A DNA stretch of 64,000 bases, taken from sequence record PV357171.2. One strand, 5' to 3'. Made by a program: the position numbers and the translations under genes. This DNA comes from a phage. Position 1 is the first letter of the stretch. The number at the start of each line of letters is the position of its first letter. The notes under the pieces are model-generated. The model saw only the letters and a list, made by a program, of their open reading frames with translations, made no database searches and was not told the DNA's origin. Below, piece by piece: positions 5,048 through 40,268 of the stretch.

Positions 5048-5123
5048 GCGATTAAGCACACGGGTTGTGCCGCAGGCCTTCCAAGCCCCGCTGAGTAGGG
5101 TTCGATTCCCTCTAGCCGCTCCA
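5048..5123 (+). tRNA. tRNA, isotype uncertain (possibly Gly, anticodon TCC)
   Basis: Acceptor GCGATTA/TAGCCGC with one mismatch, T-loop TTCGATT, 3' TCCA; anticodon stem is weak. Confidence 0.5.
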
Positions 5124-16610: not shown

Positions 16611-16897
16611 TGAATGATAGAATGAAAGAAGTACAAGAAGAATTACGAGCAATGCGTATTGATGCCCTTCGTTGGAGGGCATTAGTTAATGCTTTCGTCA
16701 AAGGAGATACCGGAGTAATATATTCTGGAATAGCAGTCAATTTTTGTTTTAATTCTCCTGCTGAAATAGAGATAGAAACAAGGCTTACTACCTACCTTAA
16801 TGAGGTAGACCTTAAGGAAGGAGAGACTCCCGAGGAGTTTAAAACTAGAGTATTAACTACCTGGGTTGATAATTTAATACAAAAAAGGAGTAAGTGA
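16610..16897 (+). CDS. hypothetical protein
   Basis: 95 aa; TAATG overlap with upstream stop. Confidence 0.5.
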   Translation: MNDRMKEVQEELRAMRIDALRWRALVNAFVKGDTGVIYSGIAVNFCFNSPAEIEIETRLTTYLNEVDLKEGETPEEFKTRVLTTWVDNLIQKRSK

Positions 16898-17487
16898 TGA
16901 AGGTTAAATTCTGGTCAGACTTGCACTTAGACCACCCTGGAGCACTACGTTTCCGTCCGTGGTTTAAGAACATGAAAGAGCACGATGAGTATATTCTAGA
17001 TACTTTGTCCAAGCATATTGGTAAACGAACAAAACTTATTTTGCTAGGAGATATTGCAGTAGGTCGTGAAGGTCTGGCCAAATTAAAGTCGGTTATCCAC
17101 AATGTCCCTAATCAACTCATTATGGGTAATCATGATGCGGAGCGTCAAGGACTGAGTATTAGGGACTTAGCGGAAGTTTATGATGATATTCAGGCTCTAG
17201 GTAAACAGACTGGAGGTGGCAAAAAGTTTTGGCTATCTCACTGCCCTTTGCATCCCAATGAACTTCGTGGCAAACTAAATATTCATGGACACGTACATAC
17301 TACTTCTCTACGTGATCCACGTTATATCAATGTTTCATTTGAAATGAGTAAAACTCCAATTCCTCTAGAGGATATTGTGTCTGGTAAGTTTACTAGCTAT
17401 GATAAAGTAGTTAATTGTACTACCGGCGAGGTATTACAAATAGGGGAAGACGTAGCTGCTGTATTACGTGGGGATATAAATGTCTGA
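16897..17487 (+). CDS. metallophosphoesterase
   Basis: LGDIAVGREG, GNHD and GHVH motifs; AAGGAG before ATG. Confidence 0.6.
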   Translation: MKVKFWSDLHLDHPGALRFRPWFKNMKEHDEYILDTLSKHIGKRTKLILLGDIAVGREGLAKLKSVIHNVPNQLIMGNHDAERQGLSIRDLAEVYDDIQALGKQTGGGKKFWLSHCPLHPNELRGKLNIHGHVHTTSLRDPRYINVSFEMSKTPIPLEDIVSGKFTSYDKVVNCTTGEVLQIGEDVAAVLRGDINV

Positions 17488-18132: not shown

Positions 18133-18164
18133 AAGTTCATAAATTAATGAGAGAGGAAATTCTA

Positions 18165-18443
18165 ATGGAAAACATGACTAAAGACTTCGACGCCTCTAAC
18201 CTTACCAAGACTGAAATGGCCAATGTATTAGCAATTCTCCTCGACATGCAAGGATTTGAGGGGCAACTGATGAAAATGTCTATTCCGGCGATGAAGAAGA
18301 TGTATGATTCTCTTAACAAGAACGCTATGGCCTTTAACTTAGCAAAACAAGAGGCACGCTTTGCTAAGGAGCATCAAGCAGTGGCAGAACGCCGAGCAGC
18401 TAGCTTTGAGCGTGAAGTCAAGCAATTAAAGAAAAAATGCTAA
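18165..18443 (+). CDS. hypothetical protein
   Basis: Start set at ATG after the GAGAGG leader (track start 18147 lies inside the leader). Confidence 0.5.
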   Translation: MENMTKDFDASNLTKTEMANVLAILLDMQGFEGQLMKMSIPAMKKMYDSLNKNAMAFNLAKQEARFAKEHQAVAERRAASFEREVKQLKKKC

Positions 18444-18967
18444 CACAAGAAAGATTAAAAGAGTTATTTGAATACCGCCCGGAAACGGGCGAGTTTATAA
18501 GGAAAGTCAGTAGAGGACGAGGTAAAGCAGGTAGTATTGCTGGTAGTCCTGATAGGGATGGTTATATATTTATTGGGATAAATAGAAAAAGATATGCAGC
18601 CCATAGGTTAGCCTTTTTGTACATGGAGGGGTATATTCCAAATCTAGTACACCACTTAAATAATATAAGAAAAGATAATAGATGGTGTAATTTAAAAGAT
18701 TGTACGTCCCAAGAAAATAATCGTAGCAAAATCGCTCAATCTAATTCGGGGTACTTAGGAGTTACCTGGAAAAAGATCGACAACAATGGAGAGTCCAGGC
18801 CAGAAGCGCCGAAAGCATTACAGTACACGGAGGCTATTTTAGGTATCTAGATTTAGAGTTGGCAGTTCAAAGAGCTAATGAACTACGTTTAGAACTACAT
18901 GGGCCTAATGCTGTTATAGAAACTTTTGATCATACAAAACCCTTACCTACTTTAGAGGACTTAAATA
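18437..18967 (+). pseudogene. HNH endonuclease with AP2-like domain, apparent -1 frameshift in an A5 run near 18771-18775
   Basis: N-terminal part in the frame of ORF 18437..18850; the expected continuation (…QQWRVQAR…LELHGPNAV) reads in another frame to TGA at about 18965; aligns to the intact paralog 34018..34557. Confidence 0.5.
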
Positions 18968-18968
18968 A

Positions 18969-19250
18969 ATGATTACAGAAATTCTCATTGGATTGCTAGT
19001 TCTTACTACACTAGTAGCGATTGGCGGAGTTATTGGGATTGTGAATGCACGAAAAAGCATGGAAAATATGCTTATTACTAATGATGGACTACACCACCGT
19101 TTGCTAGAGCAAGAGCAGGATATTGAATTAGCACAAAGACGCTCGGATATTCTTAAGGAAAAATTAAATAATATAGAAGCAATAGTTGGGAATAATAAAT
19201 TACCTGCTAAAGTAATGCGTACCCAGATAATCACGGAGATTAAAAAATGA
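18969..19250 (+). CDS. hypothetical membrane protein
   Basis: 93 aa; N-terminal transmembrane helix; AGAGGA Shine-Dalgarno. Confidence 0.5.
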   Translation: MITEILIGLLVLTTLVAIGGVIGIVNARKSMENMLITNDGLHHRLLEQEQDIELAQRRSDILKEKLNNIEAIVGNNKLPAKVMRTQIITEIKK

Positions 19251-27590: not shown

Positions 27591-27630
27591 ATAATAGAGA
27601 TTAAACTAATAACATAAGGAAACAATAACA

Positions 27631-28149
27631 ATGGGTCTATTTAAAGATATAGATTATTCGCTTGCTAATGATAACTTTTATTATGATGAAACATCCCCAT
27701 CATTTCTAAGATGGAAAGTACAGAAAGGTAATAGTAAGGTGGGGGATATTGCAGGGCATTATAGTAACACAGGTTACTATCGAGTAAAGTTAGCAGGCGA
27801 ACAATACGCAGTGCATAGAATAATATGGGTATTATTTAATGGTGAGATTGATAGCAATCTAACAATCGATCATAATGATCGTAACCGTGCTAATAATAAC
27901 ATTAATAATCTTCGCTTAGTAGATCATAAGCAGAATACGAATAACAAGAAAGATTATAAGCGTGCTAATAAGTTGCCTAAGCATATCTATTATAATGGTT
28001 CTAGAGTTGATAATAACGGAAGAAACTATTTGCGCGCTATAGTTAAAGATCCTACTAGTAACAAAAGTGTTAGTAAATCAGGTTATGATTTACAAGAGTT
28101 ATTATTATGGGTAGAAACTAAAAAAGCTGAATTTGGGATTGTCAATTAA
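27631..28149 (+). CDS. HNH homing endonuclease
   Basis: 172 aa; YYDETSPSFLRWKV N-terminal motif and DHNDRNRANNNINNLRLV HNH-like core. Confidence 0.7.
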   Translation: MGLFKDIDYSLANDNFYYDETSPSFLRWKVQKGNSKVGDIAGHYSNTGYYRVKLAGEQYAVHRIIWVLFNGEIDSNLTIDHNDRNRANNNINNLRLVDHKQNTNNKKDYKRANKLPKHIYYNGSRVDNNGRNYLRAIVKDPTSNKSVSKSGYDLQELLLWVETKKAEFGIVN

Positions 28150-28494
28150 TTTATTTTATAAATTAACGCAATGCCACTTGATTTTAAAAAGTCAATACCT
28201 TTTCCAACTATTTTTCAATTTTGCTTTTGTTAAATATTTGTTAAATCGAAAATGGGCCGCCTAAAACGCCCTAGAAAGCGGTAAAATTTTCAGGTATGCC
28301 ATTGCATTGCCTACCCTCGTTTATCGCTACCACGAGCTTTCTAGATTTTGTCAATATCCCCAAAGCAAATATAAATGAAAAAATTACTTGCCTATCTGCT
28401 TGGTTTTATGGTATTCACGCGCCCGTTCCTTTTAATTTAGGTGAGCGCCGCACGCCGTCCGGTGAAACTGTATTAGCCATATTGCTAATAATTT

Positions 28495-28503
28495 TGGTAT
28501 AAT
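28495..28503 (+). promoter_or_regulatory. extended -10 promoter element (TGGTATAAT)
   Basis: Near-duplicate of the 27582 promoter-leader. Confidence 0.4.
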
Positions 28504-28537
28504 ATAATAACCAAATGAAACTAATAGGAGAATATTA

Positions 28538-28879
28538 ATGATTGAGCTAACAAAAGATATTGATTTAGAAACTGTGCTAGATAATCTTTACTATGATGAA
28601 ACTAGTCCCAGTTGCCTACGGTGGAAAGTATCCCGCCCCGGTTGCGCCCTTCATGGGGTAGCAGGTACTAAAAGAAAGGATGGTTACTGGTCTGTACAGC
28701 TCAATAAAGAGCGTTACCTAGCGCATCGTATCGTGTGGTTATTATTTAATTATAAAATAGATAGCAAACTAGTAATTGATCATATTGATCGTAACCCTAG
28801 TAATAATTTTATTGATAACTTACGGTTAGTAACTCAAGCCGAAAACAACCAAAATAAGGGAGGCTATAGAAAGGCGTAA
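28538..28879 (+). CDS. HNH homing endonuclease paralog, C-terminally shorter (possibly degenerate)
   Basis: 113 aa; same N-terminal and HNH motifs as 27631..28149 but ends about 60 aa earlier. Confidence 0.5.
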   Translation: MIELTKDIDLETVLDNLYYDETSPSCLRWKVSRPGCALHGVAGTKRKDGYWSVQLNKERYLAHRIVWLLFNYKIDSKLVIDHIDRNPSNNFIDNLRLVTQAENNQNKGGYRKA

Positions 28880-28966
28880 AACTTACGTTTCTTTACAAAA
28901 ATAAGGTTGCGCCCTTTTCGGGAATCTCCTATTATTTATCACGTAGGGCGGCAATGACGAACTACA

Positions 28967-33855: not shown

Positions 33856-34017
33856 TAATTAAAGTTGAAATAGTCACGGTGTGTAATGATAACATGCCGT
33901 GACTATTAGCTTGCTAAGTACCGGGCGGTAATGAGACTCATTCTCATCTGGGGGGCCACTGCACCCACCCACGCGTACGTAATCCAAAGAATTTGGCAAA
34001 AGTCATTTTAGTGCTAA

Positions 34018-34557
34018 TTAACTGTTTAATTGGGCAACGTCTGGTATACTTCCTTTGAACATCTCCTGTATTGCAAAGTCACCATGAAATGTCCTTCTTA
34101 GTAAATTTGCATAATTTACGGCATCTTCTAATCCGCTATAGGGAAAGTACTTAGTAGTACCCCTTATCAGCCCCTGTTTATCATGTAATCTTACCATCCA
34201 CTTCTGAAGTTCTTTATGCCATGTAACATTTAGATAGCCTGATGATGCTCTTGAGATTCTGCCATTATGATTATTCTCTGTAATTGAAGCCTCTCTTAAA
34301 TTTGACCATCTATTATTTAGTTTATTCCTATCTATGTGGTCTACACATTCCTCTGGCCATCTATTCTCCATAATAACAAAAGCTACTTGATGTGCATAAG
34401 CTTTAAACCCTCGATACTTAAGCTGCCTATATCCCCTATTTAAAGTACCTGCTTCTTTACCCTTACGATTGCCTCTTTTCCAGGTAAAAACTCCGGTTTC
34501 GGGATCATAAGCAAATACTTCTTGTATTTCCTGTATGTTTAAATTATTCTTCATCAC
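34018..34557 (-). CDS. HNH endonuclease with AP2-like DNA-binding domain
   Basis: 179 aa; CVDHIDRNKLNNRWSNL HNH core; intact paralog of the frameshifted 18437 gene. Confidence 0.7.
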   Translation of the reverse strand: MMKNNLNIQEIQEVFAYDPETGVFTWKRGNRKGKEAGTLNRGYRQLKYRGFKAYAHQVAFVIMENRWPEECVDHIDRNKLNNRWSNLREASITENNHNGRISRASSGYLNVTWHKELQKWMVRLHDKQGLIRGTTKYFPYSGLEDAVNYANLLRRTFHGDFAIQEMFKGSIPDVAQLNS

Positions 34558-34789
34558 TCACCTTTGCCCGAAATCTCTTCCGCGACGCCCGAGATCCATC
34601 CGACCACTCCCGCTCAAACTCCGCACGTTTCTCGTCAAACTTCCGCTCCCTTTCCGCAATCTTCCGCTCCCTTTCCGCAATCTCCCGCGATACTTCCGCA
34701 GTATACTTACGATGCTTGTTAATAGCCGCAGTCATTCCGAAAACTCCCGCAAGTACCCCGATAATAAAAGCAATTATAATACTAAACAT
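34544..34789 (-). CDS. hypothetical membrane protein with charged repeat tail
   Basis: 81 aa; N-terminal transmembrane helix; REIAERERKIAERERK repeat. Confidence 0.45.
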   Translation of the reverse strand: MFSIIIAFIIGVLAGVFGMTAAINKHRKYTAEVSREIAERERKIAERERKFDEKRAEFEREWSDGSRASRKRFRAKVSDEE

Positions 34790-39458: not shown

Positions 39459-39467
39459 ATAAGTATA

Positions 39468-39501
39468 GGATGGGATACTACTCAGTTGGTATCCCATTCC
39501 T
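39468..39501 (+). terminator. candidate terminator hairpin
   Basis: GGATGGGATAC...GTATCCCATTCC inverted repeat followed by A/T-rich sequence. Confidence 0.35.
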
Positions 39502-39629
39502 GCATTTTAAAATCCCCTTTACAAATTCGATATGATTATGTATACTATATTCATTGATCGGGAGAACTTCTCCCATAATAGAACGTAAACAAGAAAAATT
39601 AATGCTCTACATGAGGTGTAGGAGATTCT

Positions 39630-40268
39630 ATGGGTCGACAAAAGCTAACAATAAAAGATATAAATACTAGATTAGCTGATCGTGGAATCCAAATTGTCGG
39701 TGAATATGTAAACCAGCGTACAAAAACAGTATTTAGATGCCAGAGAGCACACGTTTGGGAAGCAACACCACATTCTGTACTTCATATGAGGAGAGGTTGT
39801 CCACACTGCTCCAATAATACAATATCGTTAGATGAAGTTAGTAACAGAATATCTAATATAGGGTATACTCTGTTAAGCAGCTATACTAATGCTAAAACAA
39901 AACTACATCTACGTTGCAATAATGGGCATGACTGTTTCATTACCCTAGATGGATTGACTCAAGGTAAAAGATGTCCTTATTGTTCTCTTAAATGGGAAAA
40001 TGGCGGATTCCTCTATATCATGTCCTCCTGCAGAGGTACTAAAGTAGGCATAAGCTTATACCCTGAGAAGCGGCTGAACGAGGTTAAAAGAGAATCTGGA
40101 TTTTCTGACATATACTTGTTCACCGTGTATTATCTGCCGGATAGAGAGACTGCTTTAGATTTAGAGAAGGAAGTTCACAGAAAATATTATAATAAAAACT
40201 GTGGGTTTTCTAATTTTACAGGAAGTACGGAATTTTTTAATGTTGCTCCTGAAGATGCTTTCAAATAG
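39630..40268 (+). CDS. putative homing endonuclease with zinc-ribbon N-terminus and T5orf172/GIY-YIG-like C-terminus
   Basis: 212 aa; CPHCS and CPYCS pairs, then GGFLYIMSS...GTKVGIS...EKRL resembling the T5orf172 pattern. Confidence 0.45.
   Translation: MGRQKLTIKDINTRLADRGIQIVGEYVNQRTKTVFRCQRAHVWEATPHSVLHMRRGCPHCSNNTISLDEVSNRISNIGYTLLSSYTNAKTKLHLRCNNGHDCFITLDGLTQGKRCPYCSLKWENGGFLYIMSSCRGTKVGISLYPEKRLNEVKRESGFSDIYLFTVYYLPDRETALDLEKEVHRKYYNKNCGFSNFTGSTEFFNVAPEDAFK

Follow-up and report, generated by a model that had tools for sequence, protein, structure and literature searches.

Two reading frames follow one another at positions 18437 to 18972 of the window, by which we mean the whole 64,000-nt stretch of phage DNA analyzed here (record PV357171.2). 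Do they encode two proteins, or a single homing endonuclease whose gene lacks one base? And if a base is lacking, was it lost by the phage, lost in sequencing, or is its absence made good during gene expression? The original prediction, made from the letters alone, had left a homopolymer sequencing error, a pseudogenized homing endonuclease and translational slippage side by side as explanations. We found slippage to be disfavored as a designed mechanism; the pseudogenizing mutation and the homopolymer error remain, and we prefer the mutation.

Setting and layout of the locus

The window comes from a T5-like phage (Demerecviridae, Tequintavirus); over 20 kb it shares about 92% identity with both T5 and S131, and no record in the phage collection was identical to it. 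It runs collinear to the T5 left arm, in reverse orientation, and then continues from dmp into the late region; the terminal repeat is thus collapsed in the assembly. The features of the locus, together with an intact paralog located elsewhere in the window, are the following.

18147..18443, + strand: upstream flanking gene, 98 aa, T5.032 homolog, phrog_3880/DUF7179
18437..18850, + strand: frame-0 ORF of the putative broken homing endonuclease gene, 137 codons plus TAG
18593..18724, + strand: HNH_3 (His-Me finger) nuclease domain, residues 53-96, Pfam PF13392
18746..18915, + strand: predicted AP2-like DNA-binding domain, residues ~104-160 of the intact protein
18770..18774, + strand: A5 homopolymer; A6 in intact orthologs (TGG AAA AAA GAT = W K K D)
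18775..18972, + strand: -1 frame continuation, 65 codons (D114-K178 of the intact protein) plus TGA
18969..19250, + strand: downstream flanking gene, 93 aa, T5.030 homolog, phrog_4984
34018..34557, - strand: intact paralog, 179 aa, HNH_3 plus AP2-like C-terminus

The frame-0 ORF extends on the + strand from the ATG at 18437 to the TAG at 18848-18850 (137 aa), as first described, and the stop of the upstream gene overlaps its start (ATGCTAA). A second frame, at -1 relative to the first, is open from 18745 to the TGA at 18970-18972, which overlaps the ATG of the downstream gene (ATGA); from 18775 it reads DRQQWRVQARSAESITVHGGYFRYLDLELAVQRANELRLELHGPNAVIETFDHTKPLPTLEDLNK. The original prediction had correctly placed the continuation in another frame, and the end that it gave, at about 18967, marks where the last sense codon begins. 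The two frames join at TGGAAAAAG (TGG AAA AAG, 18767-18775), and TGGAAGAAG is the non-slippery, one-base-short counterpart of the native TGGAAAAAG. The site of the one-base deficit is the A5 run at 18770-18774; the break had thus been assigned to the right run, at coordinates 1-2 nt too high. Residues 1-113 of the frame-0 product are native and comprise the N-terminal region, the HNH_3 domain and the first AP2-like strand, and residues 114-137 form an out-of-frame tail, IDNNGESRPEAPKALQYTEAILGI.

Insertion of one A yields a 178-aa protein. As had been proposed, this repair restores an end-to-end alignment to the minus-strand paralog (34018-34557; 37% identity, E = 6e-30), and the repaired protein is 96-98% identical to intact orthologs. 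When the six-frame translation of the window was searched with a family HMM built from 61 homologs, two segments of the + strand were matched: 18416-18847 (profile positions 1-118) and 18745-18969 (positions 112-164). Because the HMM matches the two frames as complementary halves of one family, both reflect homology, not a chance open frame.

At the same site T5 has a 54-aa gene, T5.031, and no endonuclease gene, with clean breakpoints at window positions 18425 and 18978. Among the 358 phage records that match the 1.2-kb region, about 60 carry the endonuclease gene, a carrier being a record that covers at least 80% of the region. Such patchy presence between conserved flanks is as would be expected of a free-standing homing endonuclease gene.

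The paralog shows a comparable distribution. It lies between dmp and the T5.162 homolog, in a stretch (33875-34568) for which the counterpart spot in T5 is the terminal repeat boundary; a 1-kb region containing it was covered to at least 80% in 25 of 357 matching phage records, making it another patchy insertion. Elsewhere in the window, about 430 bp at 28455-28882 have no T5 counterpart and fall between T5 positions 5093 and 5105. This stretch contains a 122-codon open segment on the + strand (28511-28876) that matches the HNH part of the family profile only (positions 18-99, E = 2e-18) and adjoins the homolog of hegG (P-TflVII) at 27613-28146, and it looks like another inserted HNH endonuclease gene, one lacking an AP2 domain. 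At 16615-17476 the sequence of the window differs from that of T5 over about 860 bp, and T5.034, which encodes the second putative Ser/Thr phosphatase of T5 (T5 16916-17437), has no alignable counterpart.

Domain architecture and relation to known endonucleases

The nuclease half of the protein was readily recognized. Residues 53-96 of the 137-aa ORF match HNH_3 (PF13392) with 43.0 bits against a cut-off of 24.8, and the residues that are invariant in the alignment of 61 homologs (H56, P68, H73, N81 and N94) are all present, the near-invariant D72 being replaced by H. The N-terminal half of the family profile also matches the HNH module of I-HmuI (1u3e, E = 2.4e-6). The DNA-binding modules of I-HmuI differ and are not of the AP2 type.

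For the C-terminal part, the "AP2-type" label that had been given to the gene is supported at the level of the family and the fold; the Pfam AP2 model gave a full-length match to the C-terminal part alone that was sub-threshold (14.7 bits versus a cut-off of 33.3, E = 0.038). Among the 61 full-length homologs, 19 match AP2 at E <= 1e-3, with a best value of 6e-12, and the family profile finds AP2 domains in WRI1 (E = 3.2e-7), in TEM1 (1.7e-3) and in a Plasmodium ApiAP2 protein. A single-sequence search of the PDB found nothing, and both AP2 and I-HmuI were reached by the family profile only. An AF2 model of an intact ortholog that is 98% identical (P0001) predicts, at residues 109-158, three strands followed by a long helix, with a pLDDT of 93, and its best Foldseek matches in the PDB are the AP2/ERF domains 7wq5, 1gcc (TM 0.75 on target) and 7et5. 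Together, the profile matches and the predicted fold support an AP2-like C-terminal domain. The frame change cuts this domain behind its first beta-strand, following residue 113 (W111-K112-K113), and the -1 frame continuation encodes AP2-like strands 2-3, the helix and the C-terminal tail. In the window the HNH and AP2-like halves therefore lie in different frames, and in the A6 orthologs they are found in one polypeptide. The comparisons thus support the assignment of the locus to a putative free-standing HNH-AP2 homing endonuclease gene that is split in the window by a one-base deficit.

HNH-AP2 proteins have been described as a class of homing endonucleases in phages, cyanobacteria and protists (Magnani et al. 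2004, as cited in PMC10448857). Like this class, and like the "IPA-HNH" homing endonuclease genes of phage ICP1, the gene described here combines an N-terminal HNH with a C-terminal AP2-type domain in about 160-180 aa, and it shares with the class a free-standing position between phage genes and a patchy distribution. The closest parallel to the lesion itself is ICP1 gp115-gp116, in which a frameshift likewise splits an HNH/AP2 endonuclease gene into an HNH ORF and an AP2 ORF, and which its authors read as an inactivated homing endonuclease gene (PMC10448857). The two cases differ in that the HNH domain of the window is a canonical Pfam HNH_3 domain, whereas the ICP1 proteins are too divergent for the HNH_3 profile. 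In contrast to AP2 domains recognized by Pfam, the AP2 part in the window scores below threshold, and in the T5 group the gene is known from sequence alone. The T5 heg genes (hegA-hegJ; F-TflI/II/IV/V/VI and the putative P-TflVII and P-TflX) are similar in being of the HNH family and scattered in the early region, although T5 itself has T5.031, not an endonuclease gene, at this site. Depositors have named the orthologs after T5 P-TflX.

Alleles and lesions in related phages

Comparison of the alleles showed that an uninterrupted gene is the usual state. About 20 different related phages, and three metagenomic contigs as well, have A6 and an intact 178-aa ORF; of the 23 distinct phages matched by tblastn at 92% identity or more, 20 gave the protein in one uninterrupted in-frame piece. 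These comparisons agree with the proposed one-base deficit in the A run; a genuine stop followed by unrelated downstream sequence, which had been named as the observation that would count against the proposal, was not seen in the orthologs. The alleles are listed below.

A6, intact 178-aa ORF: ESCO40, MET_P1_179_112, NR01, S130/S131, VEc33 and SP01 (DNA alignment and pattern scans)
A6, intact 178-aa ORF: one IMG/VR viral contig and two metagenome contigs
A6, ORF broken by a separate nonsense change, TCG>TAG: slur09 (L002)
A7, frameshift: BB1
A5, frameshift: ECOP18 and the window only
G4>G5 lesion: PMBT31 (L020)
C3>C2 lesion: allele P0023, in read-set assemblies SRR23581751, SRR23581752 and DRR771933 (Logan, L016-L018)
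Internal deletion: P0074

Run length aside, the repaired allele of the window is 3 nt from the intact NR01 allele, and this small distance suggests that the lesion is recent; in the C-terminal part the two differ by one synonymous and one non-synonymous codon, the latter being NR01's own. Similarly, the ECOP18 allele is near-identical to a metagenomic allele, SKEH01003409, that has A6. Since each of the two A5 alleles has its own near-identical A6 allele, the A5 states of the window and ECOP18 are independent and recent. The alleles with G4>G5, with C3>C2 and with the internal deletion are more remote, though still of this locus. The C3>C2 change was seen in three separate read-set assemblies and is for this reason a real mutation. 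Judged from these alleles, the gene has been broken independently at least seven times in T5-like phages, five of them at short homopolymers.

The A6 tract itself is not conserved, because the Epseptimavirus-type (bobsandoy-type) orthologs encode the same two lysines as AAG AAA, with no run. The idea that the tract is selected as a mutable element was rejected on this ground, AAA being simply the usual codon in this AT-rich genome. Among intact alleles, synonymous and non-synonymous codon differences number 379:132 in the N-terminal part and 146:156 in the C-terminal part, from which we deduce purifying selection on the intact gene that is weaker at its DNA-binding end. The many independent lesions in the gene family fit relaxed selection on a selfish gene once it has become fixed at a site.

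The annotation of these alleles varies among records. In the ECOP18 record (L006, MT080103, 838-1373), the A5-split gene is annotated in GenBank as two "homing endonuclease" CDSs, and the BB1 and slur09 records annotate the truncated 5' ORF only; all three should be annotated as pseudogenes. In the window, likewise, a single disrupted HNH-AP2 homing endonuclease (pseudo)gene, and not two proteins, is the proper annotation for the ORFs 18437-18850 and 18859-18972. Beyond annotation the lesion matters little: an identical one has been deposited for ECOP18, and unless it is a sequencing slip, it represents a commonplace and repeated mode of breakage that belongs to the known life cycle of homing endonuclease genes. 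The T5-like locus is nevertheless a convenient natural example of the cycle of invasion and decay of such genes.

Mutation, sequencing error or recoding

We consider it probable that a recent, genuine A6>A5 deletion has inactivated a free-standing HNH-AP2 homing endonuclease gene. In the proposed course of events, A6, the longest homopolymer of the gene in intact alleles, would have contracted to A5, most likely via replication slippage. Translation from the ATG at 18437 would then leave the native frame after W111-K112-K113, add 24 unrelated residues and stop at the TAG at 18848. The 137-aa product would keep the HNH catalytic module and lose two of the three AP2-like strands together with the helix, and would presumably be inactive, with no recognition of a homing site. 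Unassisted slippage on A_AAG would give at most a trace of full-length protein.

We infer that the deletion lies in the phage DNA and not in the reads. A homopolymer error in sequencing or assembly is a possible explanation and the main rival, which we hold with less confidence; on this reading the phage itself carries A6 and encodes an intact 178-aa endonuclease, one A having been lost in base-calling or in the consensus. Several observations speak for such an error and against a real deletion: the lesion sits at the longest homopolymer of the gene, which is also the likeliest place for a sequencing error; the repaired allele, so close to that of NR01, bears no sign of decay, and its C-terminal part in particular shows none beyond the break; the sporadic +1 and -1 variants of the run in BB1 and ECOP18 are scattered over unrelated lineages, as technical noise would also give, and the ECOP18-like metagenomic allele has A6. 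In addition, the exact truncated product had no match in any other assembly, and an exact 39-mer with the window-specific K40R codon was not found in IMG/VR. Other observations speak against an error. The window contains 61 homopolymer runs of at least 6 and 241 runs of 5, and none of the others breaks a conserved CDS relative to T5: no further uncompensated frame-breaking indel was found in conserved CDSs over about 55 kb, in a comparison made with T5 only, at about 90% identity, which is blind to errors in non-conserved ORFs. When seven phages were aligned over 2.2 kb, this A run was the only place with indels of a length not divisible by three, and other A6 runs near the locus were invariant, including the neighboring A6 at 19241-19246. 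Furthermore, real lesions do occur in the family, among them a stop substitution and a frameshift present in three independent read sets.

Recoding, in which the A5 allele still gives full-length enzyme by -1 ribosomal slippage on A_AAG (the Lys-tRNA slipping off AAG onto AAA) or by stuttering of the RNA polymerase, either as a programmed device or as a "savior indel" that throttles a toxic nuclease, is very unlikely in our judgment. A -1 shift exactly at the run would restore the native protein, and TGG AAA AAG does contain A_AA.G, the most shift-prone tetramer in E. coli (PMC4066793). As in the A_AAA_AAG -1 cassettes of E. coli dnaX, IS911/IS3 and the phage tail chaperone G/GT, A's precede a Lys AAG codon and a -1 shift opens the downstream frame; unlike in these cassettes, the heptamer is incomplete, neither a hairpin nor a pseudoknot follows, orthologs do not share the split, and an in-frame A6 is the norm. 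The zero frame reads G_AAA_AAG (18769-18775), so that only the tetramer A_AAG is available, with no canonical X_XXZ_ZZN heptamer, and the P-site AAA would need to re-pair with GAA. It has been reported that E. coli tetramers lacking a stimulator give about 0.15% frameshifting over a background of 0.11%, and that for A_AAG a strong pseudoknot was required to reach a few percent (PMC4066793). In the window the 80 nt downstream of the site fold no better than shuffled sequences (-12.3 kcal/mol, z = 0.28), and folding of a wider 161 nt was unremarkable (z = -1.2). An AGGAG motif at 18757-18761, 10 nt before the tetramer and 7 nt before the would-be heptamer, could serve as a stimulator; it belongs to the codons that specify the conserved AP2 residues L-G-V, and the A6 alleles have it just as well. 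Transcriptional slippage usually needs a run of about 8-9 nt, and A5 is far below this; the run is 5 nt in the window and 6-7 nt in relatives, not a long on/off tract of about 8-9 nt or more. Moreover, the two-frame layout is not conserved, with A6 in frame in about 20 phages and AAG AAA in the bobsandoy-type orthologs. Taken together, these results do not support programmed frameshifting.

A weaker form of recoding has a precedent in the "savior" indels of the G7 run of herpes simplex thymidine kinase (Atkins et al., PMC5009743), where, as may be the case here, a one-base homopolymer indel nearly abolishes the product and low-level compensatory frameshifting, or trace slippage, may restore a little of it. 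In contrast to that run, the one in the window is only 5 nt long and its full-length product is hypothetical. A speculative extension, to which we give little credence, is that the A5/A6/A7 tract acts as a heritable throttle on a costly selfish nuclease (a "savior indel" or contingency switch), the off-length alleles being selected for near-silencing and slippage on A_AAG, aided by AGGAG, yielding perhaps 0.1-1% of full-length enzyme. If A5 were real and trace expression did occur, the locus would offer a small case study in compensatory frameshifting.

Least likely of all, in our view, is that selection favors the truncated HNH-only protein itself, for instance as a non-specific or partner-dependent nuclease or as a dominant-negative regulator of paralogous endonucleases. 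Its HNH_3 domain and all of the family-invariant residues are intact, HNH-only ORFs are found in the same genome (e.g., 28511-28876), and ECOP18 has the same A5 truncation. However, neither A5 allele is the closest relative of the other, and the near-twin of the ECOP18 allele is intact, which argues that the A5 state is neither inherited nor maintained. The 24-residue out-of-frame tail differs between the window and ECOP18, and the other lesions of the family truncate the protein at different points, as expected of decay but not of a form under selection.

One further difference from T5 was considered as a second frameshift of the window and hence as a sign of poor assembly. This sole candidate, a 1-nt difference from T5 at 39614 in T5.154, was rejected: the stretch around it is intergenic and variable, and the window's own SD and ATG (39620-39632) come only after it. 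In the window (39460-39632) the reading frame is closed over the 140 nt that encode the N-terminus of T5.154 in the T5 annotation; the best-matching phages have about 237 bp more in this stretch, and their gene is called a nicking endonuclease or T5orf172 protein. In the window the T5.154 homolog starts at the ATG at 39630 behind AGGAG, and the start of T5.154 is probably over-extended in the T5 annotation.
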